Below, one piece after another: positions 16,017 through 62,870 of a stretch of 64,000 bases of DNA. This DNA comes from a virus. The notes beneath the pieces are model-generated. The model saw only the letters and a program-made list of their open reading frames with translations. It did no database searches and was not told the DNA's origin. The position numbers were made by a program, and so were the translations under genes. The stretch's first letter is position 1. Each line of letters opens with the position of its first letter. The stretch covers positions 1 through 64,000 of the IMG/VR virus record IMGVR_UViG_3300048924_000191. One strand, written 5' to 3'.

Positions 16017-16031
16017 TAAAGGCGAGTCGAA

Positions 16032-26438: not shown

Positions 26439-26469
26439 CTACACCTCTCCTGTACAGATCGGGGTCGCT

Positions 26470-31344: not shown

Positions 31345-32235
31345 ATGAACCCGATTCAGGTAACGGCCTACGGCCTCAAAGCCATCATCCGTCTGCTGCT
31401 CGGCCACACCCCCGATGCCGACCCAAAGTCCACCGTCAACGAACGTCTGGACATCCTCGGCACCGCACGGCCGACCAACAACGAGAAGGTACGCCTTGGC
31501 GTACTGATCGCAGGTAACAAAGGCCACCGCTACGTCCCAGGTGAGGAAGGTATTGCACTGACCTCCATCCAAGACCACACGGCAACCAACGCATCGCTCT
31601 ACGGGCCGATGCCTCTCTGCGTACGCTCTGTGGACGATGACTTGTCCAAAGAGATGCGCGACAAGTACTGCCTGCGTAAAGAAAACACGCTCAACGGTCT
31701 GCCGGTGTACGAGTATTACGGCATGTGGGTCGACATCGATCCTGAAGACGTCAACGTGATCATGCGCAAGATCACTCGCGAACCTAACCAGCCGCCAGTC
31801 ATCGAGATCTTCCATCCGGATACCGAAGACCTGTACCCGACGCCGATCGCTCTCCCGACCACTGGTGCGGTGACTACCACCGACGTTTCCATCAGTTGCA
31901 GTGCGGTACTCACGGTTACCATGCCGGAGAACATCCTCGAAGAGTTCATCAACTCTGCGAAGCTGAAGTACAACGGTGACGAACGTTACGCCGTACTGTC
32001 TGAGTTTGCACTCTGCCTGAGCGCACAACGCACCGTGTCGATCAACACCACCAGCGGCCAAGCCAACTTCCTGGAATCGATCGGCACCCAGATCTACAAC
32101 TTCGCGATGGACCACAAGGCCGTCTACTACAACACTCAGGAACTGACTATCGATTTCGACATCGGTAACCAGATCCCGCTGCTGGGTACTCAGTCCATCC
32201 CGACCATGCAAACGATCGGTGTGACTGTCCCCTAA
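31345..32235 (+). CDS. hypothetical virion-module protein (296 aa)
   Basis: ORF track. Well-behaved composition. No motif recognised. Confidence 0.55.
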   Translation: MNPIQVTAYGLKAIIRLLLGHTPDADPKSTVNERLDILGTARPTNNEKVRLGVLIAGNKGHRYVPGEEGIALTSIQDHTATNASLYGPMPLCVRSVDDDLSKEMRDKYCLRKENTLNGLPVYEYYGMWVDIDPEDVNVIMRKITREPNQPPVIEIFHPDTEDLYPTPIALPTTGAVTTTDVSISCSAVLTVTMPENILEEFINSAKLKYNGDERYAVLSEFALCLSAQRTVSINTTSGQANFLESIGTQIYNFAMDHKAVYYNTQELTIDFDIGNQIPLLGTQSIPTMQTIGVTVP

Positions 32236-34524: not shown

Positions 34525-34635
34525 CCGCAGACTCTCAGAAGAGAGCCCACGGGTCGTCCATCTATTCCAAGTTGGTTACTGGGATTACTCCCATCGATAT
34601 CGGTTTGGTAAGTGGGACTCCCTGACGAGACGCCC

Positions 34636-36600: not shown

Positions 36601-36625
36601 TTATTGCTCCAACCACAAGGGATGT

Positions 36626-48229: not shown

Positions 48230-48742
48230 ATGACCGAGAAGCAGATTCTGCTCGACCACTTGGTTTTGAAGAACAAAGCTGTACTCGACCAATATAAAGT
48301 CACGCTGCGTACTTCCGACCTTGACTTCAGTGACCCAGAAGCAGGTAACTGGGAGAGCGGTGACAATACTCGAATCATCGCCACCATGCGTCCCTCGAGG
48401 AAGGTGACAGGTAGCAATATCTATTACTACTCCAGGAACGACATGCAAGCCGCTTTTGCGGCGATTGGTTATGAAGAGGTACCGTGCGCCATCGAAGGTA
48501 CTCCAGACGTCGGTAAGGTCCTCTCAGAGCTTGCCAGGCACTACAACTTCCAGTTCGACCCGAACCACGTCCTCGATGTTCAACAAGTCGATGACCAGTT
48601 CTCGTTTGGTGTAAGTTCTAAGTGTTTGCTCTGGATCGGCACGCTCACCGTGAAGATCGTAGAAGGGTACGGAATCCCTCTCGATGTGGCGTTTCCCAAC
48701 AACGTTCTGGATGGATTCATACCGCCAGAGTTCGTGGGGTAA
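48230..48742 (+). CDS. paralog-family protein, class A (module only)
   Basis: ..DNTRIIATMRP..IYYYSRNDM..VLSELARHYNFQFDPNHVLD..CLLWIGTLTVKI..AFPNNVLDGFIPPEF. Confidence 0.6.
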   Translation: MTEKQILLDHLVLKNKAVLDQYKVTLRTSDLDFSDPEAGNWESGDNTRIIATMRPSRKVTGSNIYYYSRNDMQAAFAAIGYEEVPCAIEGTPDVGKVLSELARHYNFQFDPNHVLDVQQVDDQFSFGVSSKCLLWIGTLTVKIVEGYGIPLDVAFPNNVLDGFIPPEFVG

Positions 48743-48751
48743 ATTCTATGT
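48741..48751 (+). promoter_or_regulatory. AAATTCTATGT motif overlapping the stop codon (candidate internal promoter)
   Basis: The same 11-mer recurs at 49315..49325, in the same position relative to the preceding stop codon. Confidence 0.3.
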
Positions 48752-48778
48752 CCCTTTTATCAAGCAGAGAACCAGGTT

Positions 48779-49315
48779 ATGGCCACTGATTACACCCTTG
48801 ACGAAGACAGTGTCGTCATCGATTTGATCCGCACGCAGAACCCTGGCCAGGTCCTCACGTCCAGCCTGGTGACGTTCGGCTTCCCCAACGTAAACGTCCC
48901 AAGTCAGCAGTTCCCTCACGATACGCTGATTGTTGCGACGGCAATACCTGGACGCCGATATTCAGGGAGTCAGTCTTTCAACTACAACCGGGTGCCGATT
49001 GCTGAGTTCGTTGACCCCCGACTCCCCAACCAGACCACGTTCGTTATCGCTAATGAACGTACGCTGGCGGACCTGTTGCCTGTGATCAATGAGCGGTACG
49101 ACATCCGTCTGACTGCTGACAAGATCATCAACCATTCGATCCCCAATTTCCAGGATCAGGGAATTGCAGAGTTTGAGGTGGAGCTCGAAATCGCCCCGAA
49201 CTCGAAAGTGTACAAGGACGCAATGGTGATCAAGCTTGTTCCTGAGCTGATCCCGCTGTCGGCTGTTATCAAGAATCGCCAACTCGATGGCCTTACTTAC
49301 CAGCCTCCCGCCTGA
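48779..49315 (+). CDS. paralog-family protein, class A
   Basis: VIDLIRTQNPG..LVTFGFPNV..DTLIVATAIPGRRYSGSQSFNYNRVPI..LLPVINERYDIRLTADKI..NRQLDGLTYQPPA. Confidence 0.6.
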   Translation: MATDYTLDEDSVVIDLIRTQNPGQVLTSSLVTFGFPNVNVPSQQFPHDTLIVATAIPGRRYSGSQSFNYNRVPIAEFVDPRLPNQTTFVIANERTLADLLPVINERYDIRLTADKIINHSIPNFQDQGIAEFEVELEIAPNSKVYKDAMVIKLVPELIPLSAVIKNRQLDGLTYQPPA

Positions 49316-49325
49316 AATTCTATGT
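49315..49325 (+). promoter_or_regulatory. AAATTCTATGT motif overlapping the stop codon (candidate internal promoter)
   Basis: Second copy of the 11-mer seen at 48741..48751. Confidence 0.3.
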
Positions 49326-49372
49326 GACGTCTGTGACTCACTTACCCCACCTTCAACAAGAGAACGGTCCCC

Positions 49373-49918
49373 ATGGCTGACAATCTTACCTTAGAATCGA
49401 AGAAGGTTCTTTGCGACATGATCAACCGCAACAACGTGGAGTCCGGCTCCTCGTTGACGCCTGAGTTGGTGGATTTCGGTATCCCCTCTCAGTCGAACGA
49501 TGCGAAGAATACCGACATCACCGTTATTGCAAAATCCGGCTCTGGTTACACCGGTCAGGAAGTCATCAACTACAACCGCCTGCACCTGACCACCGAAATC
49601 GGTAACCCGTACGTGGCCTCGGCGGTTGGTCGTAACCTGATCTTCCCGATCGGTGAAGCGCTCAAGATCGCAGACATCGTTCCGGCCATCAACGCTCGTC
49701 TGGCCATCAACCTGCAAGCGGCTGACTTCACCGACGGCGATCTGCCTGAGTTCACCGGCACGCCGAACGAGATCCTGGACGTCCAGCTGTTGGTAAAGGC
49801 TGACTCGCTCTGCTACCGCGGCAGCTTGACCTTCCAACTCAAGGCCGAAGACATCCTGCTGTCGACCGTCATCGTGAACAAAGTGATGGATGGCCTGACC
49901 TACCAGCCTCCTGCTTGA
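49373..49918 (+). CDS. paralog-family protein, class A
   Basis: LCDMINRNNVE..LVDFGIPSQ..NTDITVIAKSGSGYTGQEVINYNRLHL..IVPAINARLAINLQAADF..SLCYRGSLTFQL..NKVMDGLTYQPPA. Confidence 0.6.
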   Translation: MADNLTLESKKVLCDMINRNNVESGSSLTPELVDFGIPSQSNDAKNTDITVIAKSGSGYTGQEVINYNRLHLTTEIGNPYVASAVGRNLIFPIGEALKIADIVPAINARLAINLQAADFTDGDLPEFTGTPNEILDVQLLVKADSLCYRGSLTFQLKAEDILLSTVIVNKVMDGLTYQPPA

Positions 49919-49946
49919 TTTCACCCCGATCAGACATAAAGCACAC

Positions 49947-49979
49947 AGACGAGGGGTGGGTTAACCCCACCCCTCGTCT
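49947..49979 (+). terminator. hairpin inside the co-directional paralog array
   Basis: agacgaggggtggg ttaa cccacccctcgtct (14-bp perfect stem plus a closing tt/aa pair, taken here as the loop). It lies between stop 49918 and start 50006 and separates the class A trio from the class B quintet. Confidence 0.6.
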
Positions 49980-50005
49980 ATTCTGCCCGATCTAGGAGAC
50001 GCAAC

Positions 50006-50803
50006 ATGTTTCTACTACCTGGCGGAGCGGAGAAAGCTCTGACTGATGCCATTCACGCAGCCAACCCGCTCGCCGGTGACGTGCATGTCGATGACCTGTA
50101 CTTCGGCCTGATCACCAAATCGGCTGACCAGTCGGGTGCTGTAGAAGTACCTGTAGTGGCGATGTACAACAGCGACTTCGAAGGCTACATCCGCTTCAAA
50201 TACGACCGTCTCGATCTGGGGCGTGCGTACCAGGGGATCAAACCTCAAGTCAAGCGTGTGGGTTATCCTACACTCTATCGACTGTTACCCATCATCAACG
50301 AAACGCTGGGTCTGTCACTGACTGAGCGTGACGTGGTCGACGTGGCCATTACCTGGTTGGGTGAGAACGAGCAGGTGAACATCCCTATCGTCTCCAAACC
50401 TGACTCGCTGGGTTACGAGGGACAGTTCCTTGTTGAATACACTCGGGTACGTCCGGAGTTGGCTTCGATTGCCAACCGAATCCTCGATGTGTTGAAACAT
50501 CCGTTGGACCCGAAGTTGGGACAACGTTCGATGTCGATGAACACTTGGGGGATCGACTTCACTGACGATCAAGCGTCCCTGTTGACTAACGCAGGTGCTT
50601 GGCGTTATCCCGATCAAGTACGCAAGGTGATGGAAGGTCATGGGTTCTTCAACTGGCCTCAAGCACCTTGGTACTCCCTGATCGTTTCGGCTACGTCGGA
50701 TATCCCCACTGCCAACAAGGAATACACGCACGTTATCATTCAACCGAACGTGTCGTACCCGAATCACATTGGCGACGCTTACTTCCACTATAACCGGTCA
50801 TAA
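50006..50803 (+). CDS. paralog-family protein, class B (module plus LHYN-type C-terminal domain)
   Basis: LTDAIHAANPL..LYFGLIT..AVEVPVVAM..FKYDRLDLG..LLPIINETLGLSLTERDV..SLGYEGQFLVEY..ends AYFHYNRS. Confidence 0.6.
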   Translation: MFLLPGGAEKALTDAIHAANPLAGDVHVDDLYFGLITKSADQSGAVEVPVVAMYNSDFEGYIRFKYDRLDLGRAYQGIKPQVKRVGYPTLYRLLPIINETLGLSLTERDVVDVAITWLGENEQVNIPIVSKPDSLGYEGQFLVEYTRVRPELASIANRILDVLKHPLDPKLGQRSMSMNTWGIDFTDDQASLLTNAGAWRYPDQVRKVMEGHGFFNWPQAPWYSLIVSATSDIPTANKEYTHVIIQPNVSYPNHIGDAYFHYNRS

Positions 50804-50815
50804 AGAGGGCTCGAT

Positions 50816-51649
50816 ATGAGCTTGTACCCTGATCCGCTAGAAGCCGTGGTAGAGTCCATCGAGACTCTCAACCCTGGCGTACAGCTGGCCGTAAACGAAT
50901 ACAACTTCGATCCTTCGATGGCGATTCCGGAAGAGGCTTCGGGTGTCAACACCCAGATCCATATCTCGGCCAAAGGTGCATCCACTCCATACGCCGGCGC
51001 TGTGGACATCAAACACATCCGCCTCAAGCTGTCTGACCTGACTACGCTGATCCCGTCAGAGATTGCCGTGAGTGGTATCACTACTACTCTTGATCTGGCG
51101 TTGGCGATCAACAAGTTCTACGGCACCAACTTCACCACTGCGGATATCGTGACCAGCGATGCTGAGTTGGTAGATGGCGCTGGCGATGTCACCCTGGTAG
51201 CTAAGGCCACTTCGCGTGGCTGGATCGGCCAGGTAACGTTCCATGTGACGAAGGGACGGATTCCTCTCACCGACGTCATTACTGTGACGCGTTTGCCCGG
51301 ACTCAACTACCCAGACCCGTACGAAGCCAAGCCTTTCGGTATTGCGTATACCTACTGGCGCGATTACTCCCTACAGCACGCTATCCTGGACGTTCTCCAG
51401 ACAGGTGCACAAGGAGACCTCGAAGCGGTCAAAGACGCCATGGTCAACACCACAGGCGATGCCTGGGTCACTACCGGCTCTAGCCGTTACTCTCTCGAGG
51501 GTGCGGAGATCCTTTACGTCGGCGATACCGCGGGCTATCCAGAGTTCAATCAGAACTACGAGAAAGGCGTCGTGGTTAAATTGAGTGCAGCCTGTCTGGG
51601 TTATTCCGGTCGTCTTTTCCTGCACTACAATCTGCCAGAAGTCCTCTAA
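50816..51649 (+). CDS. paralog-family protein, class B
   Basis: VVESIETLNPG..NTQIHISAKG..IKHIRLKL..LALAINKFYGTNFTTADI..SRGWIGQVTFHV..TRLPGLNYP..ends LFLHYNLPEVL. Confidence 0.6.
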   Translation: MSLYPDPLEAVVESIETLNPGVQLAVNEYNFDPSMAIPEEASGVNTQIHISAKGASTPYAGAVDIKHIRLKLSDLTTLIPSEIAVSGITTTLDLALAINKFYGTNFTTADIVTSDAELVDGAGDVTLVAKATSRGWIGQVTFHVTKGRIPLTDVITVTRLPGLNYPDPYEAKPFGIAYTYWRDYSLQHAILDVLQTGAQGDLEAVKDAMVNTTGDAWVTTGSSRYSLEGAEILYVGDTAGYPEFNQNYEKGVVVKLSAACLGYSGRLFLHYNLPEVL

Positions 51650-51660
51650 GGAGATAGGTG

Positions 51661-52440
51661 ATGGATAGCGGTGACAAGATCCGCGAGCTTATCAACCTCG
51701 CCAATGACCCTCCGAAGTTATTCACAACGCGTAACCTTCGTCTCGATGTTCCAGTCCCCGATGCGGGTGATGGTTGGAACACCAAGATGGAAGTGGAAGG
51801 TATCCCAGGCCGTGGTTATTACGGCACTGAGGAGATCTACTACAAGCGCATCCCGCTCGAACTGGTAGAACGTTCCACTCCGCTGCGTTCGATCGCTCCA
51901 CTGACGCCACAGCTCGTCCTGGACCTGTTCAACGGTGCTACCGGCCTGTACATCACACTGGAAGATGTCGAACCCTTCACGCCTCCTCAATTGGAGGACG
52001 GTGATTCGGGACAAGTCGACATCGTAGCAGTTCCATTGTCGATGGGCTTTACTGGTACTGCGACGATCCTGCTGGAGTACGGTAAGGCTTGGTTGGATAC
52101 GGTCGTTTCCGTTCGCGTGCTGCCGGTGCTGAAACATCCGATCGTCGTATTGAATCGGATGTCTACAAGGATGTTGACGTGGGGTATGGACTTCACTTCA
52201 CTGCGCGACGCCATCCGGCCTGACAGTAAAGGTGATTACTCCAACTGGGACGCTCTCCAAGCCGCTTGCGTGGAGCTGAACATCCCGACCTGGATGAAGA
52301 ACAAGATCACCGACCAACCGACGTCAGCGGTGCCTGACAGCAACCAACTGTTTGACCGTGTAGTGATTCAGGCAAGCGTATCCAGTGAAGGAATGGATGG
52401 CAAGGTCTACCTGCACTACAACAACCTGGAAGAGGTTTAA
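51661..52440 (+). CDS. paralog-family protein, class B
   Basis: ATG 51661 preferred (AAGGAG 7 nt upstream) over GTG 51658. IRELINLANDP..NTKMEVEGIPGRGYYGTEEIYYKRIPL..SMGFTGTATILL..ends VYLHYNNLEEV. Confidence 0.6.
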   Translation: MDSGDKIRELINLANDPPKLFTTRNLRLDVPVPDAGDGWNTKMEVEGIPGRGYYGTEEIYYKRIPLELVERSTPLRSIAPLTPQLVLDLFNGATGLYITLEDVEPFTPPQLEDGDSGQVDIVAVPLSMGFTGTATILLEYGKAWLDTVVSVRVLPVLKHPIVVLNRMSTRMLTWGMDFTSLRDAIRPDSKGDYSNWDALQAACVELNIPTWMKNKITDQPTSAVPDSNQLFDRVVIQASVSSEGMDGKVYLHYNNLEEV

Positions 52441-52442
52441 CC

Positions 52443-53390
52443 ATGCCACTATTCACCAAGCCGTCTCAAGCCTTGGTTTATGACCTCATCAATGAGGCGA
52501 ACCCGGACCTTCCGATCGTGCTCTCGCCAGCTAACTTTAAGTTGGGTGCCCCAGCCGCTGGTACGGTGCCTGGCCGTCCTGAGCTGAACACGGTAGTAAC
52601 CGGCTCGGCTATCGGTACCGACTACATTGGTCGTAAACCGCTCAACTACCAACGCCTCTCGCTCAACAGCCTGTTCCGTGGGATGGTGGTGCAGATCAAC
52701 AAGTATTCGGCTAACCAGAACTCTGGCTCGTCGGGTGCTATCGTATTCACCCTGTATCAGCTCCTGCCGATCATCAACACGCTGTACGGCATGAACCTCA
52801 CTGAAGACGACGTGACCAACGTCAACATCACGCGGGGTACGGCGCAAGAGAACGGTTTCTACACCTCGACCGTGACCGTGAATGCCAAGGCGACCTCGCT
52901 GGGCTACATCGGTTCGTTCGCACTGAAATGGCGCGGCGCTCCACAAGACCTCGAGTCGATGATCACCGTGACCGATCTCGCTGCTCGTCTGTTCCCAGGC
53001 GGTAACACCTTCGATGGCACTCACCCAGTCGTTGTCAACAACATGGCGTACAACATCGATTGGACGTCGTTCATCGCTACTGCACCGTGGGGTAACTTCC
53101 CAGGTAACCCAGTGGCTGGTAACGATACCCCAGCGTTCGGTAACCGGTTCATCGCAGAACTCAACCGTCTGTACGGTAAGGGTCTGGTGGGTTCGGTCAA
53201 CAACGCGCCTGCATACGCTTACATGGATTGGGGCGGTGTCGTATACGACCTCAGCACTCAAGCCGGTCGAGACGCCTGCCCTCTGGCTAACTCCAAGTAC
53301 TACAACCGTGTGCTGGTCTGGACTATCCCAGATTACGACACCGCGCGTGGTTCGGGTATCGGCCAACACTTCATCCACTTCAACGTCTGA
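52443..53390 (+). CDS. paralog-family protein, class B
   Basis: VYDLINEANPD..FKLGAPAA..NTVVTGSAIGTDYIGRKPLNYQRLSL..LLPIINTLYGMNLTEDDV..SLGYIGSFALKW..ends HFIHFNV. Confidence 0.6.
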   Translation: MPLFTKPSQALVYDLINEANPDLPIVLSPANFKLGAPAAGTVPGRPELNTVVTGSAIGTDYIGRKPLNYQRLSLNSLFRGMVVQINKYSANQNSGSSGAIVFTLYQLLPIINTLYGMNLTEDDVTNVNITRGTAQENGFYTSTVTVNAKATSLGYIGSFALKWRGAPQDLESMITVTDLAARLFPGGNTFDGTHPVVVNNMAYNIDWTSFIATAPWGNFPGNPVAGNDTPAFGNRFIAELNRLYGKGLVGSVNNAPAYAYMDWGGVVYDLSTQAGRDACPLANSKYYNRVLVWTIPDYDTARGSGIGQHFIHFNV

Positions 53391-53401
53391 GGATAGACTC
53401 C

Positions 53402-54274
53402 ATGGCGTACATGACTCAGTCACTCCCCGACGTCCTGGCGGCTATCAACGCCGCCAACTCGACGACGTACAAGGTCACCGAAATCGACTTCGGCGCACCT
53501 CAAGCGTTGTCGGGTACGTGGAAGGGGCAAGCAACATCCCGCAACACCGGTATCCGCATCACCGCCAAGGCCGGCAGTCCGTATCAGGGCAAACGCGATC
53601 TGACCTACGATCGACTGAACTTGGGTTCGCTGAATGCAACTAACCTCCCGGGGTTCAAGTGCTCGGCGTACAATGTCACCACCGTCTACACATTGCTGCC
53701 GATGTTGCAGTACTGGACCGGTATCCAGTTCACCACCGACGATCTGGAAGACGCGCCGCTGGTAGACAATGGTGACGATACCCATTCCGTCACTCTGACG
53801 GCCAAGACCACCAGCCTGGGCTGGATCGGTACCGCGCCACTGACCATCACCAAGGGCGCTGCCCCGCTGGATGCGTTGATCACAGTGACCTCGCTGAACG
53901 GTTTGAACTACCCAACCGCCAGTGATCAGGACACTTACGGTGCGATGTACCTGTACCCGTACGATTACACCAACTACTTCAGCACGCTGTCCCCAATCGC
54001 ACCAGGTACCCTCACCAGCACGCAAGCAGATGCCCTCGTGGCCATGCTCCTGGCTACCGACATCGGCGCCGGCAAGGCGCTGTGGGCGAACAACCCTGGT
54101 GCGACGGCGTGGAACCTGGCGAACGCAACGGTGGTCAGCAACGGTCTCAACAACCCGACCCTGCCAACCAACCCATCGTACAAATACGTGATGGGTCTGC
54201 GCCTCGATCCGGCTGTGTTGACTCCTGCGGGTCTGATGTACCTCCACTACAACGATCCATTCGACGCGTCGTAA
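53402..54274 (+). CDS. paralog-family protein, class B
   Basis: VLAAINAANST..IDFGAPQA..NTGIRITAKAGSPYQGKRDLTYDRLNL..LLPMLQYWTGIQFTTDDL..SLGWIGTAPLTI..SLNGLNYP..ends MYLHYNDPFDAS. Confidence 0.6.
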   Translation: MAYMTQSLPDVLAAINAANSTTYKVTEIDFGAPQALSGTWKGQATSRNTGIRITAKAGSPYQGKRDLTYDRLNLGSLNATNLPGFKCSAYNVTTVYTLLPMLQYWTGIQFTTDDLEDAPLVDNGDDTHSVTLTAKTTSLGWIGTAPLTITKGAAPLDALITVTSLNGLNYPTASDQDTYGAMYLYPYDYTNYFSTLSPIAPGTLTSTQADALVAMLLATDIGAGKALWANNPGATAWNLANATVVSNGLNNPTLPTNPSYKYVMGLRLDPAVLTPAGLMYLHYNDPFDAS

Positions 54275-54281
54275 GGGGTCA

Positions 54282-54309
54282 TAGACGAGCGCCGGTGGGC
54301 GCTCGTCTA
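54282..54309 (+). terminator. hairpin inside the co-directional paralog array
   Basis: tagacgagcgcc ggtg ggcgctcgtcta, a 12-bp perfect stem. It separates the class B quintet from the mixed class C/adaptor block. Confidence 0.6.
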
Positions 54310-54331
54310 CTAACCAATTGGGAGATTATCC

Positions 54332-55357
54332 ATGCTTCGCGCCATCTTCGGTTTCGACCACATCGCAAAGAACGTGAGCGACACGTGGCTGCCAAACTGC
54401 GGTTATGTTTTTAGCAAGACCGCCTCAGGCACCAACCGTGGGGTCATCATTACACCTGACGGATCGTTGGCTGCGACACCCTCTACCGGCAACACGCCGT
54501 ACGTTCAGGTGTTCCACGATCTGTCCAAACACCTGGTTGCGCCTGTTAGCACATTCACCATCGGTATCCGCGCTAAACAGTTGGCGTTAGGCAATAGTGG
54601 TGGTTTCCTATACCTAGCCGCTGAGGCAGTCCCTACCTCGTTCATGTTGCTGTTGAACTTTCAGCAATTGACGAATATCGGCGTTGTGGGTGGCGAGAAC
54701 TATATTGAGATCACATTCGATCTGATAGCAGCTACCGCCACCTACTACATCGACGACGTGTTCTTTACCAGCATCTCCATCAACACGATCTCGTTGGCTA
54801 ACCTAAGAGCCGGCATCGTCCAGGTGGTCTACACGCTGAGCTACCCGGCCAACGTGGCGGGTATCACGGCAGTGCGTGACATCTACCTGACCGACAACTA
54901 TCCAGGTGATGGTTACGTGGGTCGTCTGGGTCCTCGCAAGATATTCCCTGTTACGCTTGACAGCGCCTCAGGAACTGATTGGACCACCAGCGATGGGTCT
55001 GGGCTTCTGACTGCTCTAAACGTCCCTATCGAGACGGCTGGAGCTGCTACCATGACCTCCGGCGTCAGCAAGGCACCACTGGTGGTGGGATTGAACCCAG
55101 GGTCTCTACCAGCGAACGCCAACGTCGATGGCGTATTCGTCATGATGGCCGGTAAGGTAGATCAGGCCGGCGCACTGACAGGTCTCTCGGCAACCAACGG
55201 CGGGAAGACCATTCTCGCTCAGTCGAAGGCGATCGGCACGGCGTTCAAGTACGGCAACCCATTCGGTGTGTTCACCCGCGCCCCTAATGGCAGTCGCTGG
55301 ACTGCTGCTTCCATCGACGCGACCACGCTCTCATTGACTCCAGACGTAGCGAGTTAA
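54332..55357 (+). CDS. class C protein: N-terminal strand motif plus jelly-roll-like domain plus conserved C-terminal domain
   Basis: MLRAIFGFDH..YIEITFDLIAATATYYIDDVFF..VRDIYLTD..VGRLGPRKIFPVTLDSASGTDWT..WTAASIDATTLSLTPDVAS. Paralogous to 57278, 58330 and 59995. Confidence 0.6.
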   Translation: MLRAIFGFDHIAKNVSDTWLPNCGYVFSKTASGTNRGVIITPDGSLAATPSTGNTPYVQVFHDLSKHLVAPVSTFTIGIRAKQLALGNSGGFLYLAAEAVPTSFMLLLNFQQLTNIGVVGGENYIEITFDLIAATATYYIDDVFFTSISINTISLANLRAGIVQVVYTLSYPANVAGITAVRDIYLTDNYPGDGYVGRLGPRKIFPVTLDSASGTDWTTSDGSGLLTALNVPIETAGAATMTSGVSKAPLVVGLNPGSLPANANVDGVFVMMAGKVDQAGALTGLSATNGGKTILAQSKAIGTAFKYGNPFGVFTRAPNGSRWTAASIDATTLSLTPDVAS

Positions 55358-55360
55358 GCC

Positions 55361-56377
55361 ATGTCATTAACCGTACGGGCAGTGCAAGCTTACGCGCTCG
55401 GTAAACCACTGGCAGCTTCCACGGTTCGGTCGATCACCGCTTATGCGCTGGTTGATACGAACCCGGTGGTTCCTGGTCCACCGGCGCCTACTGATTACAA
55501 GGCCGATCAGATCGACATCTTGTACGATCTGATCGAGAAGAGTAACCCGGGTTTCAAAGCGCAATATCCGAAAGGTACCGTGCAGTTCAGTGCGGTGACG
55601 GCGGTTCCCACGGTACCTGGGGATGGGTACAAGACCGATACGTCGATCTTGGTGTCTCCGGCACCTGGTAGTTCGGCACTGGGTCGTCAGACGGTTCGTT
55701 ATCGCCGTATCGATTTCGGTACCATCTTCAAGCACATGACGCTGACCCTGAACGATTACGTCGCTTCAGGTACGTTGTCAGCGGCGACGTGGAAAGCTTC
55801 GTTTGCCTCGAAGTTTGGGATCAAGATTCCTGCTGCAGACATTGCCAACACGACAGCGCTGACTAGCGGTGTGTTGACCAACATCAACGTGATCGCCACC
55901 AGCTGGTGCTATAAAGGTACTGTGCAGTTGACGTGGACGGTAGGACCTCGTCCTTTCACCTCCATCGTCACGGATGCAAACCGTGCGCTGGTTGGGCGGT
56001 TTTACCCAGGCAATAACAACGACTTCACCACCCCCGGCCGTAAACCGCAGGGTGAGATGTTGGTCTACTGTCAGGACGCCAGTGTTATCTCGTCGTTCCT
56101 GGAAGCGTTCACTAGCGCTTCTGTTCTCGCCTCGTCCCACAGCACAGTTATCAACTTGGTTAACTGGCTGCTGGCTAACACGAAGCGCACGGATTGGAAC
56201 GTCGGTGATTCCTCCTCTGGATCAGGTGGTGTAACCGGACTGACCTGGTATCGGTACACGCTGCCCAATGCCGCTATCCCAGATGCCAACTCCGCCAAGT
56301 ACAACCGTTGTGTCGTCTTGCAAAGCGTGGCCGGTAGTTGGTTCGCTGGCAAGATCATCATCCACTACAACGTGTAG
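55361..56377 (+). CDS. paralog-family protein: 2 tandem strand-motif repeats plus module plus LHYN-type end
   Basis: TVRAVQAYALGKPLAAS / TVRSITAYALVDTNPVV, then ILYDLIEKSNPG..TSILVSPAPG..VRYRRIDFG..SWCYKGTVQLTW..ends KIIIHYNV. Confidence 0.6.
   Translation: MSLTVRAVQAYALGKPLAASTVRSITAYALVDTNPVVPGPPAPTDYKADQIDILYDLIEKSNPGFKAQYPKGTVQFSAVTAVPTVPGDGYKTDTSILVSPAPGSSALGRQTVRYRRIDFGTIFKHMTLTLNDYVASGTLSAATWKASFASKFGIKIPAADIANTTALTSGVLTNINVIATSWCYKGTVQLTWTVGPRPFTSIVTDANRALVGRFYPGNNNDFTTPGRKPQGEMLVYCQDASVISSFLEAFTSASVLASSHSTVINLVNWLLANTKRTDWNVGDSSSGSGGVTGLTWYRYTLPNAAIPDANSAKYNRCVVLQSVAGSWFAGKIIIHYNV
55370..55471 (+). repeat. 2 x 51-nt coding tandem repeat (17-aa units)
   Basis: Units TVRAVQAYALGKPLAAS and TVRSITAYALVDTNPVV. 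Confidence 0.6.
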
Positions 56378-56385
56378 GGTCCGTC

Positions 56386-56880
56386 ATGGGTATTTTCGTA
56401 TCAAGCCAGGCGGACTTGATTGCGATGATCAACGTTGCGAGCGGTGTCAACTTCACCGCTTCCGACTTGGTCTTCGGCAAACCAAGAGCCGCTACCTCCG
56501 CTGAGATCACTCAGTTCGGAAAGAACAGCGCTGTCGCTGTGCGGGCCTCCGATACCACGACGTTGGTGGCCGGATTCACGACCTTCTTCTACGACCGACT
56601 GGATCTGAAGACGCTAGAGCTCTTTGACTTGACCACATGCTTCTGTGCAGACGGACTGGCCAAAGACGCGTGGTTGGGTACCGTCATCGGTTACCTCAAC
56701 GTCCCGTTCACGCCGACACATCTGGTCGAACACAGCTCGACTACGGTGAACGGTAAAGTGAATGTCCAACTGGAAGCCACGACCGATAGCCTGGGTTGGT
56801 TCGGCACAGGGACGTTGGTGTTCGGTGGTTATCCAGATATCTCGACAGCCTTCACTGACAACAAATTGACAGGCTTCTAA
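56386..56880 (+). CDS. paralog-family protein, module only (N-half of a split class B architecture)
   Basis: Start moved to ATG 56386 (MGIFVSSQADL). LIAMINVASGV..LVFGKPRA..NSAVAVRAS..FFYDRLDL..SLGWFGTGTLVF..ends DNKLTGF. Confidence 0.55.
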   Translation: MGIFVSSQADLIAMINVASGVNFTASDLVFGKPRAATSAEITQFGKNSAVAVRASDTTTLVAGFTTFFYDRLDLKTLELFDLTTCFCADGLAKDAWLGTVIGYLNVPFTPTHLVEHSSTTVNGKVNVQLEATTDSLGWFGTGTLVFGGYPDISTAFTDNKLTGF

Positions 56881-56895
56881 GCCGAGGAATCGATC

Positions 56896-57273
56896 ATGAA
56901 TGATTGGCCGAACTACCTGATCCGTCAGGACTTCACCGAACCAGGTGAGGTGCTGAGTGTGATCCCGCTGGGCCTACTCAACGAGGCGGATCAGCGACTG
57001 ATGGCCCAAGTGCTGTCTGAGTACGCACCGCAAGTCGATAAAGACAAGTGGAACATGGACGAGCACGGCACGGAATATAGCCTGAATGGCGCTGAGGTCA
57101 TCTACAACGGTCTCAACCATCGCGACCTGCCAACCTTCAGCACGTACAAGTACGCCCTCGGGTTGCGCTTCCCAGAACGTTCTACGGCACCCGTAGGTAC
57201 TATCTTCCTGTGCTGGCATGAGCCGGTGGAGGAAGAGCCAGTTGCTGAAACACCACCTGTGAGTGAGGAGTGA
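56896..57273 (+). CDS. stand-alone LHYN-type C-terminal domain (C-half of a split class B architecture)
   Basis: ..EYSLNGAEVIYNGLNHRDLPTFSTYKYALGLRFPERSTAPVGTIFLCWHEP aligns with the end of 53402..54274 (WNLANATVVSNGLNNPTLPTNPSYKYVMGLRLDPAVLTPAGLMYLHYNDP). Confidence 0.55.
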   Translation: MNDWPNYLIRQDFTEPGEVLSVIPLGLLNEADQRLMAQVLSEYAPQVDKDKWNMDEHGTEYSLNGAEVIYNGLNHRDLPTFSTYKYALGLRFPERSTAPVGTIFLCWHEPVEEEPVAETPPVSEE

Positions 57274-57277
57274 TCTC

Positions 57278-58312
57278 ATGCTTCGTGCAATGTACGGTTT
57301 TGATCACTGTGTCAGAACTCCAGCACCTGCCGTTGGTGCTGTGAACAACCCTTCGGTAGGTTTCGGTTACGCCAATGCCACACTGCTGAACCCTACCCTC
57401 ATGGCGGTGGACAGTAACGGTTTTCTTGGCGGTTACTCCTCAGCTCAGAACGTCAACCTGGCGTTCGACATGACGGGTCTGATTCCACCTAACCCGACCA
57501 AGGTCACGTTCGGTTGGCGTGTAAAGACCCTCCAAGTCTACGGCGCTGCTCACGCGATGATCTCGTTCTCGGTCCCAGGTACGCCTAACGATACGACTGC
57601 GTACATCATCCAGATGGCAGCAGCCAACGCCCCGTGGCTGCCAACGGTAGGTAACGAGGTCTACGTCGAGCTGACTTACGACTTCGTGACGTTCACGCCT
57701 ACCCTCACAGTCAACGGCGTCCCTGTGACTGCTACGATCGGTAGCGCTCCTAACACCGCTCAGAAGGCTGCGTTCGTGTCGGGTGCCTGGACGATCAACT
57801 TCACGCTCGCCAACACCGTGAACGCCCGTTATGCCTACCGCGACATCTACATCGTCGATGCGGTGGCGGGTGACGGCATGGTGGGTCCGCTCGGTCCTCA
57901 GAAGCTGTTTCCAATCACCTTGGACGCCGCAGCAGGGGCTGGCTGGACACCTTCGTCTGGTACGCTGTTGGATGTGTTGAACGCTGCCTTGCCAGCTAAC
58001 CCAACTGCCACTTCGCCAAGCGACAAGACTCCATTGGTCACCAGCCTTAAGACCAGTGCTCCTGAAGGTAGTCGTGTCACTGCGGTGAGTCTGTCGTTGT
58101 CGGGGACCAGTAGTGGTGACGGGGCATCGACCAGTAAGGTTGAGATCACCCAAAACAGTCAGAGCTTCTCACCGAAGTTTCCCGTCGTGGCGAAGACTAC
58201 CACCTACGGTGCGCCAATCGGGATCTTCCCGAAAGCGCCTGATGGCACCTCGTGGGATCTGGCAAAAATCGATGCGACCACCCTCAAGCTGACCCCTGAC
58301 ACCGCCGCCTGA
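57278..58312 (+). CDS. class C protein (jelly-roll-like plus conserved C-terminal domain)
   Basis: Start moved to ATG 57278, GAGGAG upstream. MLRAMYGFDH..VYVELTYDFVTFTPTLTVNGVPV..YRDIYIVD..VGPLGPQKLFPITLDAAAGAGWT..WDLAKIDATTLKLTPDTAA. Confidence 0.6.
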   Translation: MLRAMYGFDHCVRTPAPAVGAVNNPSVGFGYANATLLNPTLMAVDSNGFLGGYSSAQNVNLAFDMTGLIPPNPTKVTFGWRVKTLQVYGAAHAMISFSVPGTPNDTTAYIIQMAAANAPWLPTVGNEVYVELTYDFVTFTPTLTVNGVPVTATIGSAPNTAQKAAFVSGAWTINFTLANTVNARYAYRDIYIVDAVAGDGMVGPLGPQKLFPITLDAAAGAGWTPSSGTLLDVLNAALPANPTATSPSDKTPLVTSLKTSAPEGSRVTAVSLSLSGTSSGDGASTSKVEITQNSQSFSPKFPVVAKTTTYGAPIGIFPKAPDGTSWDLAKIDATTLKLTPDTAA

Positions 58313-58329
58313 TTCGAGGATTTATCATC

Positions 58330-59298
58330 ATGGCAGTTAGAGCAATTATCGGGTTCGACCACCTGCCGCAGAACGACACGAGCTGGATTAACTACGCCAG
58401 CCACGACATGACGCGCGCCGCAGACTTGTCGGCCCAAAACACCATCGTCAACGGATGGCTGGTCAGTAACGCTACTGCATCGGGCGCTGAGCGCGTAACC
58501 ATTCCTCTCGACAAATACCTGGTCGCTCCGGTAGCCAAGATCTGGTTCGGTATCCGCTGCCGTTCTACTCTCAACGCGCGTGGCGGTGCAGGCATCATCT
58601 ACCTGAACGGCACCTACGTGTTGTTGGATACGTTGATCGGCGTCACGGGTACTACCACGTACCTTGAGTTCTCCTACGACGTTGCCAGTGGTGCTGTAGA
58701 ACGTTGGATCAATGGCGTCAAACAGGCTAACGGTACCAGTCCTGGTGCAGGTCTGCGTAACCTCACGTTCGGCTTGGAAGCCAAGGGTAGTCTCAACGGT
58801 CGATACGACTGGCGTGATATCTACGTCGTCGATGATCAGGGAGCTGCACAAGGTTTGCCGGTAGGTCCTCTTGGCGCTCAGGTGACTTACCCCATCACTT
58901 TGGATGCGGCTTCGGCTTCGGACTGGACCACCACTCCGAGTGGTGCCACCCTGCTCGAAGCGTTGAACGAGCCTGGTGCGGTCCCTACGGCTAAAATCGC
59001 AACGTCGGCTTCCAACGCTCCTCTGACGGTGAGTCTCAAGTCCTCAATGCCTGCGGGTGTCGTGGTCAATGCCATCGAACTCATGGGCGGTGGTCGTTCG
59101 ACCACGACCAGTACGGCGAAAGTCGCGGCGAAGATCTCGACGGGCGGTACGGATGTTGCAGGTCTGACGCCCGTTGCGCCGATCACCAACTATGCGTACA
59201 GTCTTGGGTTCGGTGTGTTCCACAAGGCTCCGAATGGCACCCCGTGGACCAATACCAACATCGACGCTACGGATCTTGTCCTGACGCCTGATGTTTAA
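58330..59298 (+). CDS. class C protein
   Basis: MAVRAIIGFDH..TYLEFSYDVASGAVERWINGVKQ..WRDIYVVD..VGPLGAQVTYPITLDAASASDWT..WTNTNIDATDLVLTPDV. Confidence 0.6.
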   Translation: MAVRAIIGFDHLPQNDTSWINYASHDMTRAADLSAQNTIVNGWLVSNATASGAERVTIPLDKYLVAPVAKIWFGIRCRSTLNARGGAGIIYLNGTYVLLDTLIGVTGTTTYLEFSYDVASGAVERWINGVKQANGTSPGAGLRNLTFGLEAKGSLNGRYDWRDIYVVDDQGAAQGLPVGPLGAQVTYPITLDAASASDWTTTPSGATLLEALNEPGAVPTAKIATSASNAPLTVSLKSSMPAGVVVNAIELMGGGRSTTTSTAKVAAKISTGGTDVAGLTPVAPITNYAYSLGFGVFHKAPNGTPWTNTNIDATDLVLTPDV

Positions 59299-59309
59299 GG
59301 GGATTCTCC

Positions 59310-59981
59310 ATGCCAGTCAATATTGCAAACATCCAAGGCTACGCATTGACGCGCCTAGCCTCGCCGGTGAACATCGCCAACATTCAGGGTTACGTGCTGG
59401 CTAACCCACCTGCGCCCGTCCAACTGCGAGACATCCGTGGTTACGTGATGGTGACTGCGCCAGCGCCCGTTCAGTTGCGGACCATCAATGGCTACGCCAT
59501 GGTCCCGTTCCAGGACTTGCCGAAAGGTAAGACGGCAGCAGTGGCATTGATGGACATGATCCTCGTTCGGTTGAAGAGTGCCCGTCCAGCCTCGCACTTC
59601 AATTTGGGTGCTGTGGAGCTCGGTACCGAGACCGACTACAACGCCAAGGTGAAGTTGACACCGAATGCGGTAGCCTTATTGTCAGGGGAGATGTACTTCC
59701 ACTACAACCGGATTTATCTGTCACGGATGCCGAGTCTGAGTTCGATCGTGATCGGGAGCGCGGCTAACACCCACGCCCTGATTCCAGCGATCAACACTCT
59801 CACCGGCATGCAACTCACCACGAACGACATCGTGAATGAGGACATTCCAGCAGGGTACGTGGAAGTCACTCTGACTGCAGCGGCTACCAGTTATCTGTTC
59901 ATTCCAGGGACTCAGTGCCAAGTGGGTAACACACCGTCGCTGGCAGCTCAGTTCAAAACTGACACGATCCTCTGGTCGTAA
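59310..59981 (+). CDS. paralog-family protein: 4 tandem strand-motif repeats plus module
   Basis: Four 17-aa units, then LMDMILVRLKSARP..VELGTET..KVKLTPN..YFHYNRIYL..ALIPAINTLTGMQLTTNDI..TSYLFIPGTQCQV. Confidence 0.6.
   Translation: MPVNIANIQGYALTRLASPVNIANIQGYVLANPPAPVQLRDIRGYVMVTAPAPVQLRTINGYAMVPFQDLPKGKTAAVALMDMILVRLKSARPASHFNLGAVELGTETDYNAKVKLTPNAVALLSGEMYFHYNRIYLSRMPSLSSIVIGSAANTHALIPAINTLTGMQLTTNDIVNEDIPAGYVEVTLTAAATSYLFIPGTQCQVGNTPSLAAQFKTDTILWS
59313..59516 (+). repeat. 4 x 51-nt coding tandem repeat (17-aa units)
   Basis: PVNIANIQGYALTRLAS / PVNIANIQGYVLANPPA / PVQLRDIRGYVMVTAPA / PVQLRTINGYAMVPFQD. Confidence 0.75.
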
Positions 59982-59994
59982 GGAAAAACAAACC

Positions 59995-61086
59995 ATGAAG
60001 ATTCATGCGATGTACGGTTTGGACCTGCCGACCACGAACGCGACAGGCAACGGCAGTAACGTACTTATCACTCGGCTGCCAAACGGGCCGTGGCAGTCGA
60101 TGTCGACAAACAGCGAAACCAATTTCAGTATCCAGGTTTGGACGGATGGATGGCTGAGAATGGGGATCGGTGCCGGAGCTCCGAACTTTGGCAACTATCG
60201 ATTCCGCGCCGTAGCTGACATCAAGGAAATGATCCCAGTCGTTACACCAACCTCGAACTTGTACTTTGGCGTTCGGGTAAAGGCCGGTACCGGATACACC
60301 GGCAGTACTGTGGTGACGTTGTCTTCCGCGGTAGACATCAATAACCTGGTCAACCTGTTCCAGATCACGGATCTGCCCGGTTACGTGATCGATAAGTCGT
60401 ACTACGTAGAGTTTAACTTGAACTTTGCGAACAACACTATCGATCGCCGTGTCGATGGTAAACCACTGGCGCAGATGGCCATGCCTGCTTGGATGGCCAC
60501 CGCAGTATCTGCGTCGCCTGGCGGTACCAGCGTTTATGTGGGTATCGGTGCCAGCTTCTCGTACAGTATCAGTCAGGGCCAAACCCACTACTTCTGGTGG
60601 CGTGATTTCTACTGCGTCGAGTGGGAGGCTGGGGAACTCGCTCAGTTTCTGGGTCCTCAGGTGGTGGAAAAGGTACCTGTCGATACAGTGGCGGCTACTG
60701 CCTGGACTGCTAGTACTGGCACTGCGACTTCGGTCTTGAAGACGGGGTACAGTAACCCATCCACTGCCATCGGCGCTCCAACCCTCACCACCGACGATGC
60801 GATGACGCCGGGTAGTATCACCTACAACCCCACCAACATTCCAGTGAATGCCGTTCTCAACGGTATCCTCGTGAAGGGACGCTCAGCAGTGAGTGTAAAT
60901 GCCACGGGCAACTTGGGCGTCTCCGCTACGGTCGGTGGGGTGGAGTCTTCGGATGCCAACGTAGCGATGGTAGCTGCGCAGACGTTCTACGACCGGATGT
61001 TGTTCCTCACTAAAACCCCAGGCGGGCTACCATGGACTCAGCCAGCGTTGGCGGGCCTTACCGTCAAAGCCAAACCGAAGGTGTAA
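59995..61086 (+). CDS. class C protein (most divergent member)
   Basis: MKIHAMYGLDL..YYVEFNLNFANNTIDRRVDGKPL..WWRDFYCVE..FLGPQVVEKVPVDTVAATAWT..WTQPALAGLTVKAKPKV. Confidence 0.6.
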   Translation: MKIHAMYGLDLPTTNATGNGSNVLITRLPNGPWQSMSTNSETNFSIQVWTDGWLRMGIGAGAPNFGNYRFRAVADIKEMIPVVTPTSNLYFGVRVKAGTGYTGSTVVTLSSAVDINNLVNLFQITDLPGYVIDKSYYVEFNLNFANNTIDRRVDGKPLAQMAMPAWMATAVSASPGGTSVYVGIGASFSYSISQGQTHYFWWRDFYCVEWEAGELAQFLGPQVVEKVPVDTVAATAWTASTGTATSVLKTGYSNPSTAIGAPTLTTDDAMTPGSITYNPTNIPVNAVLNGILVKGRSAVSVNATGNLGVSATVGGVESSDANVAMVAAQTFYDRMLFLTKTPGGLPWTQPALAGLTVKAKPKV

Positions 61087-61089
61087 TCC

Positions 61090-62292
61090 ATGGCTAACCC
61101 TAAATTCGTACTTCGATCGCTTGACGTGTTTGCGATGTACGGCGTGAATAATCTTCCGCCGTTTGGTACCCCTGGTCCTGCTGCGATTCTTACAGCGATC
61201 AACAAGGAGCAGGGCATCACACTCACCTCAGCACAGGTCACGGTTGGTGCGCCTGTAGCAACGACAGGCGACACGTTGTTCAATACCTCGGTGACACTGA
61301 CATCAATCCCTAACAAGGGGTTTAAAGGGACGTTCACGGCTCGATACAACCGAGTCAGTGGCAGTCTGTCAGCGGTGTTGAACAACCTCACCATTCCCGG
61401 TGATGGAGCTTTCACGGTAGGTACCACTCACGACCTTATCCCTCTGATCAACACAGCCACGGGCTTGACGTTGGTTACTGGAGACATCGTGAATGAGGCC
61501 ATTCCGGTTGGGACAAACTCGGTCGATCTGAAAGCTGCTTCCACGAGTTACTTCTTCCTGCCTGGGTCGACCTTCAAGGTTTACGCAGGTGAGATCGCAG
61601 GTGAGCCGTGGATGTTGTTCGACGTGAACTCGTTGACTGACGTCAAGACCACAGGTTCGACGGGTACGCTGGCAAGTGCAGCGCAGGACAACACGTACTT
61701 GATTGATGGGGAACCTACCCTGAAGATCACCGGTACGGGTTCCCTGACGATCAACCTCGGTCAGTTGTTTGATTCGAGTATTCCTGAATGGACGCTGGAA
61801 TGGTCGAGTCGTTTGAACACGACCACCACAGGCTACGCTAACCTGCTCCGTCTTGGCAGTGCGACGGCGTACCAGCTGGTGCAACGGACTTCCGATTCTG
61901 GTTTCGGTCTGAGGATACAGCAAGGTATCGACTTCTCGACACAAGCCGGTGCATGGAACTTCCCGTTCGGCAGCGTTGCGAAGAACGGCGTGCTGACTCG
62001 TTACGCCGCTCAGAAGAAGAATGGTCTCATCACCATGTTTGTGGACGGTAAAGCTACCAACATGGCCAATGGTACCGGTTCGACCTACAACAGTAAATCG
62101 TTTTCCGCAGGCGCCGGTGTTGCAGCGTGTGACCGGATTACCCTGGGACTTCTGGCGCAAAACATCAGTCATGTTCGTCTCAGTAAGTTCGCTCGGTATC
62201 CGATCGACTACACGCCGAAACCGTTCAAGTCTGCTCCAACGCTTGCGCAAGCTGCACCGAACACCGATCTCTCTGGATTCGATCCAGCATAA
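61090..62292 (+). CDS. paralog-family protein: strand motif plus module plus LamG/concanavalin-like C-terminal domain
   Basis: LDVFAMYGVNN..ILTAINKEQG..VTVGAPVA..NTSVTLTSIPNKGFKGTFTARYNRV..LIPLINTATGLTLVTGDI. A LamG-like pattern follows: EWTLEWSSRLN..LITMFVDGK..ISHVRLSKFARY. Ends NTDLSGFDPA. Confidence 0.6.
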   Translation: MANPKFVLRSLDVFAMYGVNNLPPFGTPGPAAILTAINKEQGITLTSAQVTVGAPVATTGDTLFNTSVTLTSIPNKGFKGTFTARYNRVSGSLSAVLNNLTIPGDGAFTVGTTHDLIPLINTATGLTLVTGDIVNEAIPVGTNSVDLKAASTSYFFLPGSTFKVYAGEIAGEPWMLFDVNSLTDVKTTGSTGTLASAAQDNTYLIDGEPTLKITGTGSLTINLGQLFDSSIPEWTLEWSSRLNTTTTGYANLLRLGSATAYQLVQRTSDSGFGLRIQQGIDFSTQAGAWNFPFGSVAKNGVLTRYAAQKKNGLITMFVDGKATNMANGTGSTYNSKSFSAGAGVAACDRITLGLLAQNISHVRLSKFARYPIDYTPKPFKSAPTLAQAAPNTDLSGFDPA

Positions 62293-62297
62293 AGCAG

Positions 62298-62330
62298 CAT
62301 ACAGCCGGGGCGCAATGCCCCGGCTGTATG
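62298..62330. terminator. bidirectional hairpin, copy 5 of the repeated element
   Basis: catacagccggggc gcaat gccccggctgtatg, between stop 62292(+) and stop 62346(-). Confidence 0.7.
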
Positions 62331-62345
62331 TCGTTGCCGTAAGGA

Positions 62346-62870
62346 TTAAGCCTCGGCGTCGAAACCACTCAGGTCAGTGGTAGTCGCCGCTTCATCCAAA
62401 GGGACGTCAGCGTCCGGGATGTCCAGGACGGCGGCGTAGGTGCCGGTGTACAGCAAGCTGGACACGTTGGCGACCACGTCGGCCGAACCCGGGGTATCTT
62501 CGTTCACTGGGCGAACGATGTTCGACAGAGTGAATTCGGATTCCAGCAGACCCAGAGCGGTAGCGATCTTGGTCTTGACCTGTGGGTCGGTGTCGGAAGC
62601 TGCGATCACCACCGGAATATCTTTGGCGGCAGCGATTGCCTGGCCGGAAGCCAGAGCCAGACGGGTGTAGGAGAAAGTCTGCGAACCAGAGAAACCCTGG
62701 TTGGCGATTGCGGTGAAGGTCACCGAGGTGTTACGACCGCCAGTACCGGCAGCGGCCGAAGGCGCACCGACGGTAACTTTGGCCAGAGTGGCGTTCAGAC
62801 CGGCGTTCGCACTGTTGACCAGTGCCAGGACGTTCTCCTGAGCCGTGATGGACGGGTTGATCTTTGCCAT
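62346..62870 (-). CDS. paralog-family protein, class A, encoded on the opposite strand
   Basis: ORF track 62346..63068. Start moved to ATG 62870 (MAKINPSITAQ). VLALVNSANAG..VTVGAPSA..NTSVTFTAIANQGFSGSQTFSYTRLAL..SSLLYTGTYAAVL..ends TTDLSGFDAEA. Confidence 0.6.
   Translation of the reverse strand: MAKINPSITAQENVLALVNSANAGLNATLAKVTVGAPSAAAGTGGRNTSVTFTAIANQGFSGSQTFSYTRLALASGQAIAAAKDIPVVIAASDTDPQVKTKIATALGLLESEFTLSNIVRPVNEDTPGSADVVANVSSLLYTGTYAAVLDIPDADVPLDEAATTTDLSGFDAEA

Follow-up and report, generated by a model that had tools for sequence, protein, structure and literature searches.

The stretch of viral DNA considered here (the window) comprises 64,000 nucleotides, positions 1 to 64,000 of the IMG/VR virus record IMGVR_UViG_3300048924_000191, with a G+C content of ~54%. 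It contains sixteen open reading frames (ORFs) built on a common module of ~160 amino acids (aa), most of which lie in an array at 48230-62870 and which we name below by their lower coordinate. An earlier inspection of the sequence, made without database searches (the original prediction), had listed these ORFs, credited them with a shared and ordered set of motifs, and likened them to the phiKZ paralogs gp131-135. An ORF check of the window found 16 of 16 at their coordinates, including the two tandem copies at 28710 and the minus-strand ORF at 62346..62870. The ATG starts at 30289, 51661, 56386 and 62870(-) fall inside slightly longer, mechanically defined ORFs and are the more plausible starts. 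When the 17 modules (28710-29666 carries two) are aligned with MAFFT, the ordered motifs can be recognised, and BLASTP and Pfam agree with this alignment.

Matches to PF25613 (DUF7941) lie above the curated gathering score of 27 bits in all sixteen ORFs (45-199 bits, E-values 1e-11 to 1.5e-58), and each ORF also matches PHROG 1037, 2935 or 3589, annotated as 'virion structural protein'. All-vs-all BLASTP interlinks the paralogs with E-values down to 1e-30 at pairwise identities of only 20-35%, which bears out both the similarity expected between the listed ORFs and the view that they form a large, genuine paralog family of virion-type proteins. On these matches we assign the sixteen ORFs as paralogs within DUF7941 (PF25613), a family of virion proteins from phiKZ-like jumbo phages and the same family as paralog family B of SPN3US, gp126, gp127 and gp143 of phiKZ, and gp22, gp23 and their relatives in Goslar. 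A search of the six-frame translation of the window with the module profile returned no additional DUF7941 member. Among 1.84 billion representative proteins, a profile made from 12 members of the window matched 3833 representatives at E<=1e-3, and by this profile count DUF7941 is a large family.

Domain organisation of the DUF7941 paralogs

The PF25613 model has 276 positions, of which 1-170 correspond to the ~160-aa module (the N-domain) and 180-276 to the 'LHYN' domain (the C-domain). Six ORFs, here class A, consist of the module and a closing motif only: 29688..30266 (+, Pfam E 5e-13, with two copies of the closing motif, VLDGLVPP and KLAGF), 48230..48742 (+, 7.5e-15), 48779..49315 (+, 4.6e-29), 49373..49918 (+, 1.3e-28), 56386..56880 (+, 1.2e-11) and 62346..62870 (-, 1.7e-17, also phrog_4862 at 3e-15). 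In another six, class B, the N-domain and linker are followed by the ~100-aa C-domain, with an HYN or HFN end: 50006..50803 (+, 1.1e-37 over the full profile), 50816..51649 (+, 4.4e-47), 51661..52440 (+, 2.4e-36), 52443..53390 (+, 1.9e-35), 53402..54274 (+, 1.5e-58) and 55361..56377 (+, 3.2e-28), the last with a 44-aa N-terminal extension. The linker carries the closing motif, with the consensus h-x-x-L-[DNSTP]-G-[LF]-x-[YP]-P.

The remaining four are variants. The ORF at 28710..29666 (+) encodes two tandem N-modules (aa 7-162 and 169-317), identified as two stretches by Pfam and with a local hidden Markov model (HMM), and lacks a closing motif at its end. The module of 30289..31332 (+) has an acidic insertion and is followed by a divergent C-domain (Pfam 6.9e-14, positions 5-274); the C-terminal part by itself matches DUF7941 positions 130-274. 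In 59310..59981 (+) the module stands behind N-terminal repeats described below (Pfam 2.2e-13), and in 61090..62292 (+) it is followed by an extra domain of ~210 aa and a C-terminal closing motif (Pfam 3.2e-18; phrog_3545 over aa 177-384).

Of the four contexts in which the module was originally said to occur, three are recovered here (class A, class B and other extensions), while the fourth, a LamG-like domain in 61090-62292, is without support from any sequence method used (Pfam, PDB sequences, hhalign, homologs). The extra domain has zero Pfam matches at E<10 and zero PDB sequence matches, the homologs of 61090 bear PF25613 alone, and a relationship to the second gene family of the array (fam2, below) is not supported (hhalign probability 0.9%). 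Behind this domain a pattern scan locates TDLSGFDPA at residue 394, which resembles the C-terminal TDLSGFDAEA of 62346(-); the corresponding aa 384-400 align with HMM positions 148-164 as a sub-threshold second domain only (independent E-value 16).

The module-only ORF at 56386 is the first half of a split class-B gene. Directly 3' of it, 56896..57273 (+) encodes a stand-alone C-domain that matches the C-domain of 53402 (BLASTP E 2e-13) and that was detected via PHROG 1037 only (phrog_1037 positions 183-286, E 4.6e-7), not PF25613; an E-value of 3e-35 against a C-domain HMM is expected by construction, as the sequence is among the seven that build the model. The pair is kept, as 164 aa followed by 123-129 aa, at the same place in two metagenomic relatives (L006 and L007), and its equivalent in Burkholderia phage FLC9 is gp318 and gp317. 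A frameshift or assembly error is thereby ruled out, and the conservation of the split in all three indicates that it is functional.

Modules are also found joined within single chains. Of the best 150 family representatives, 27 combine 2-4 modules in one polypeptide, in which the closing motif directly precedes the next module. The same search of representatives returned P0127, a protein of 2709 aa from outside the window with ~19-23 tandem copies of the C-terminal half of the module (profile positions ~77-145), which looks like a Mollicutes surface protein, having a signal peptide, a K/N-rich composition and BspA-type 'NWDTS' repeats. As only the C-terminal half is repeated, this half is a separable sub-domain; P0127 also explains the DUF7941 matches reported in Spiroplasma (PMC13375240), and the domain is therefore not strictly confined to jumbo phages.

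Relationship to phiKZ gp127 and the baseplate genes

For structure prediction we used the best family representative in the window, 53402. The AlphaFold2 (AF2) model, calculated from a 55-sequence alignment, has an overall predicted local distance difference test score (pLDDT) of 87, with residues 1-155 at ~90, the linker (156-180) at 55-65 and residues 181-290 at ~93. In the alignment the low-confidence linker nevertheless contains the near-invariant residues L165, G167, L168, Y170 and P171, a combination of low confidence and conservation that is the pattern expected of a peptide folding only upon its partner. The predicted plan of the protein is thus an N-domain, a conserved flexible linker that corresponds to the closing L-x-G-L motif, and, in class B, a C-domain ending in HYN.

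A Foldseek search of the PDB with this model gave a sole match at E<1e-3, chain 0 of 9xqd, which is phiKZ gp127 of the outer peripheral baseplate (E 4.8e-6, probability 1.00, template modelling (TM) score 0.66 normalised on gp127). The 12-member window profile matched the same chain, 'PHIKZ127', through residues 11-290 with the HYN end included (E 3.5e-20); a PDB search with the single sequence of 53402 returned zero matches, so that among PDB sequences gp127 is reached by the 12-member profile only. The ~155-aa N-domain is, on this model, an alpha/beta fold that is an orphan apart from gp127, and an orphan fold was likewise found by the authors of a recent preprint on phage Goslar (10.64898/2026.04.21.720040).

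In phiKZ, five gp139 dimers form a band that extends outward from the wedge protein gp128 in the lobe of the baseplate star, and gp127 lies at the end of this band (PMC13250141). Three DUF7941 genes of the window (28710, 29688 and 30289) sit between homologs of these two partners: a gp128 wedge homolog at 26308..28698 (+, tblastn 36% identity, E 5e-104) and a homolog of the spoke protein phiKZ gp139/Goslar gp32 at 31345..32235 (+, tblastn 33% identity, E 3e-36). The tandem ORF 28710-29666, which adjoins the gp128-like gene, gives the strongest pairwise match with phiKZ gp127 (phmmer E 4.7e-7). Around them lie homologs of phiKZ gp129 (23508-26438, -), of the brace ring protein gp157 (7192-8514), of gp164, a 'baseplate assembly protein' in the phiKZ record (12096-12968), of gp123, annotated 'polymerase' (36626-38314, -), and of the major capsid protein gp120 (39617-41947, -). 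Given these homologs, a large part of a phiKZ-like baseplate module appears to lie in the window. Some long ORFs run antisense to real genes, among them 52449-53423(-), of 324 aa, opposite 52443-53390, and 53420-54247(-), and long ORFs overlap on the two strands at 34612-36696(+) and 34636-36600(-); the antisense ORFs are probably a by-product of base composition.

The original prediction took the module to be the equivalent of the N-terminal baseplate-attachment part of phiKZ gp131-135, joined to alternative C-terminal receptor heads. There are parallels, in that both are paralog sets of phiKZ-like phages associated with the outer baseplate and a few DUF7941 members (61090 and FLC9 gp310) do have extra C-terminal domains; gp131-135, like family C of SPN3US, also combine a shared N-domain with variable C-termini. 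When scored with the window module profile with the HMMER filters off (hmmsearch --max), phiKZ gp127, gp126 and gp143 matched at E 8.5e-18, 2.6e-13 and 2.3e-11, respectively, while gp131-135 reached E 0.27-1.4 only, and phmmer searches of the window DUF7941 proteins against gp131-135 gave E>=0.03 with no consistent match. The counterparts of gp131-135 are instead two other genes of the window at 14634..16679 (+; phrog_13857 and phrog_2163): 14634-16016 matches the N-terminus of gp131 (tblastn E 1.7e-25) and 16032-16679 the N-termini of gp135/gp134 (tblastn E 1e-22). The two families are also distinct in the literature, where SPN3US papers keep the gp131-like family C apart from family B (PMC5694885) and the phiKZ atlas describes the N-termini of gp131/133/134/135 as a hetero-hexameric fibre base, and gp127 is the only fold-search match. 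Judged by these comparisons the gp131-135 analogy is refuted at the level of homology, and we consider such a model highly improbable. The threefold expansion that had been deduced from it uses the wrong reference, since DUF7941 genes number ~3 in phiKZ, 10 in Goslar and 20-21 in SPN3US. As for the multi-headed host-recognition apparatus, a place at the baseplate (from phiKZ gp127) and a role in host recognition (proposed in the Goslar preprint) are consistent with it, but an attachment part with varied heads would fit a minority of the proteins only, as 12 of the 16 are the module alone or the module with the family's own C-domain.

Lectin-fold genes, hairpins and conservation of the array

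Interleaved with the DUF7941 genes are four members of a second family, fam2, at 54332..55357, 57278..58312, 58330..59298 and 59995..61086 (all +; the last is the most divergent), with mutual BLASTP E-values of 1e-14 to 1e-41. We rejected the possibility that they are divergent DUF7941 proteins (hhalign probability 0.15%); they have no Pfam family at E<10 and no PDB sequence match, and they match phrog_2448 weakly. The AF2 model of 54332 (pLDDT 90, predicted TM score 0.88) is a two-domain, all-beta structure with 215 Foldseek matches in the PDB at E<1e-3, the top neighbours being mostly legume lectins, ERGIC-53, BoNT Hc/NTNH and CBM22, and the predicted fold is accordingly that of a ConA-like lectin jelly-roll. 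Its closest neighbours in BFVD, at TM 0.7+, come from several unrelated phages, often with more than one protein per phage, and are either uncharacterised or annotated as 'virion structural'; structural twins occur in Achromobacter, Serratia and Providencia phages. FLC9 has six fam2 copies, some fused to long proteins, and in FLC9 gp314 a fam2 domain is joined to partial DUF7941 modules. The co-encoded lectin fold and this gp314 fusion are suggestive of a role in recognising the host.

Two DUF7941 proteins begin with 17-aa repeats of the consensus V/L-R/A-x-I-x-G/A-Y-A/V-L/M, four in 59310 (59310-59510) and two in the extension of 55361 (55361-55460). A scan of the array with TRF did not find tandem repeats at the DNA level, where the 17-aa repeats, spaced by 51 nt in 59310, leave a weak 51-nt periodicity only. 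The repeat resembles the first beta-strand of fam2 (M-LRAIxGFDH) and the start of 61090. From its sequence, the repeat could be a docking strand.

The phage is known from metagenomes only: compared by megablast with 50,697 phage records, the array had zero matches, and a 100% identical protein occurs on a 243-kb JGI metagenome contig. The nearest cultured relative of 53402 is in FLC9 (48% identity), and SPN3US-like and Erwinia jumbo phages come next at ~36%; the best match in SPN3US itself is gp143, within the gp138-154 run (tblastn 36% identity, E 4e-29), and the module profile matches 11 of the 17 genes of that array. Positional orthologs of the array genes are present in L006, L007 and FLC9, an example being the ortholog of 49373..49918 at the equal array position in all three. 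Over the core, 49373-56896, gene order and one-to-one orthology are kept as far as FLC9 at 30-48% identity, while the ends of the array vary, with 48230 lacking an ortholog in L006 or FLC9 and with 59995, 61090 and 62346(-) replaced or rearranged. As the paralogs within the window are so divergent, the duplications must be old and each copy retained. Such old, individually conserved copies argue, as far as sequence comparison goes, for distinct and non-redundant roles and not for interchangeable ones.

Among cultured phages the closest array is that of FLC9 (gp303-gp326, LC667451), in which class A, class B and the split pair follow one another as they do in the window. It also has fam2 genes, and hairpins at matching intergenic positions, but its fam2 genes form a cluster behind the DUF7941 core and are not interleaved with it, three of them are fused to long extensions, and identities are modest. 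Goslar shares the domain family and the succession of N-domain, disordered linker and C-domain, with gp22 resembling class B and gp23 class A; some of its members have extra domains, and members flank the gp32/gp139 spoke gene. It differs in having 10 members genome-wide, compared to 16 in 64 kb here, and in the nature of its extra domains, which are glycoside hydrolase or leucine-rich repeat domains, unlike those of the window; of the two, the window alone interleaves four lectin-fold genes of a separate family and has one class-B gene split. SPN3US family B (gp83, gp138-154, gp161 and gp237), described in 2016-17 (Thomas 2016, Ali 2017), is homologous and includes 17 consecutive same-strand genes for ~18-kDa and ~30-kDa members; with 20-21 copies it is larger, experiments placed its proteins in the head fraction, and fam2 lectin-fold genes were not found in its array. 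In phiKZ the likeness extends to full-length profile similarity to gp127, including HYN, to the fold of the N-domain and to genes adjoining the gp128 wedge gene, but there are only about three members, and in the window the neighbour of the gp128 homolog encodes two tandem modules and is not of class B.

Three perfect hairpins part the array into class-A, class-B and mixed blocks. A 14-bp stem at 49947..49979 closes the class-A block, a 12-bp stem at 54282..54309 closes the class-B block, and a 14-bp stem at 62298..62330 stands where the array ends, between two converging genes. The first two share AGACGAG...CTCGTCT (0.01 expected by chance), and their positions are also occupied in L006, L007 and FLC9 by hairpins with different stem sequences, suggesting that they are probably functional terminators or attenuators. 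In this capacity they would probably give each of the three blocks its own level of expression. A promoter-like motif, TTCTATGT, lies 5' of two class-A genes, but two matches compared to 1.0 expected are not significant, and sigma-70 and terminator scans gave no excess over shuffled sequences.

Putative assembly and function

The Goslar preprint (10.64898/2026.04.21.720040) describes 10 members of the family in that phage, counts phiKZ gp126, gp127 and gp143 among its members, and defines the architecture of N-domain, disordered linker and C-domain. Virions of Goslar contain ~580 copies of gp22 and ~2140 of gp23, purified gp22 forms filaments in vitro, and AlphaFold3 predicts head-to-tail dimers, from which its authors propose head-to-tail polymers that make up a 'fibre cloud' anchored at the peripheral baseplate (10.64898/2026.04.21.720040). 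We consider a similar arrangement the best explanation of the sixteen paralogs, with a probability of roughly 55%: head-to-tail heteropolymer filaments on the rim of the baseplate, which aid host binding. The linker of one protomer, with the C-domain where present, would dock onto the N-domain of the next, and this would yield flexible, head-to-tail filaments of several paralogs, attached to the outer rim of the baseplate. More speculatively, the abundant module-only paralogs may be the bulk subunits, while the members with extra domains and the four lectin-fold proteins may present glycan-binding surfaces that raise host capture.

The filament model draws on the Goslar observations, on natural tandem fusions and on the conserved, disordered linker. 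Chains in which the closing motif abuts the next module, of which the tandem in 28710 is one, support head-to-tail joining, as does the closing motif of 61090, which is kept at the extreme C-terminus behind the inserted domain. The baseplate location follows from the structural match to gp127 and from the synteny of three members with the wedge and spoke genes. Several observations weigh against this model. Particles of two different tailless SPN3US mutants contained all family-B proteins, which were assigned to the head (PMC5105663, PMC5694885, PMC10052503), a finding that is not addressed in the Goslar preprint (10.64898/2026.04.21.720040); the placement of phiKZ gp127 is an AlphaFold model of the N-domain docked in a ~4.4 A map; filaments have been shown for one Goslar protein only, in vitro; the main array at 48230-62870 does not adjoin baseplate genes; and the link between fam2 and DUF7941 consists of gene neighbourhood and one FLC9 fusion.

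Some of these points would be accounted for if the DUF7941 proteins were associated with the head, as capsid-bound fibres or decorations or as internal or ejected head proteins, which is what was concluded for SPN3US family B from its detection in tailless 64_112(am27) and head-only 255(am107) particles. The great abundance of gp141 and gp160, beyond the need of a baseplate site alone, fits such a location, as does the position of the main array, which neighbours replication genes and has the major capsid gene ~6 kb upstream of it. However, the N-domain of phiKZ gp127 is modelled in the outer baseplate (9xqd), three window members are syntenic with wedge and spoke genes in the same manner as phiKZ gp126/127 and Goslar gp31/33/34, and processing by the prohead protease is not reported for family B. 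Long self-assembling filaments could, moreover, co-purify with head-only particles; if they do, or if the members encoded in the array attach elsewhere, the two sets of data could be compatible. We regard a head location for the family as unlikely on balance, yet as a serious rival. It is improbable, too, that the array is a fast-evolving host-range cassette of recent and interchangeable receptor-binding duplicates, free to change in number and order: the ends of the array do differ between relatives and copy number ranges from 3 to 21 between phages, but the order and orthology of the core are kept to FLC9, the low identity between paralogs places the duplications far back, and most members are without a recognisable binding domain.

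A stricter form of the filament model, which we regard as decidedly unlikely, is an ordered heteropolymer in which the linker of each paralog fits the N-domain of one partner, so that the order of subunits would be fixed. The proteins of 56896-57273 and 28710-29666 would then serve as cap and anchor, and the four lectin-fold proteins would be displayed along the filament via the strand-like 17-aa repeats. If true, this would be a programmed multi-subunit adhesive fibre unlike the classical trimeric tail fibres.

The family itself is already well described and sixteen copies are not unprecedented. Modest novelty in this phage lies in the lectin-fold paralogs interleaved with the array, in a gene split that is conserved, in core genes that keep their positional orthologs, and in hairpins that are likewise conserved. 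Few virion proteins of phiKZ-like jumbo phages are as abundant or as often duplicated as those of DUF7941, yet both their location, in the head or at the baseplate, and their function are disputed. While they do not represent a new kind of system, this phage and its FLC9-like relatives, with a non-redundant core, a split pair, tandem fusions and lectin-fold partners, offer a compact test case for the head-to-tail filament model and for the search for the components that bind the host.

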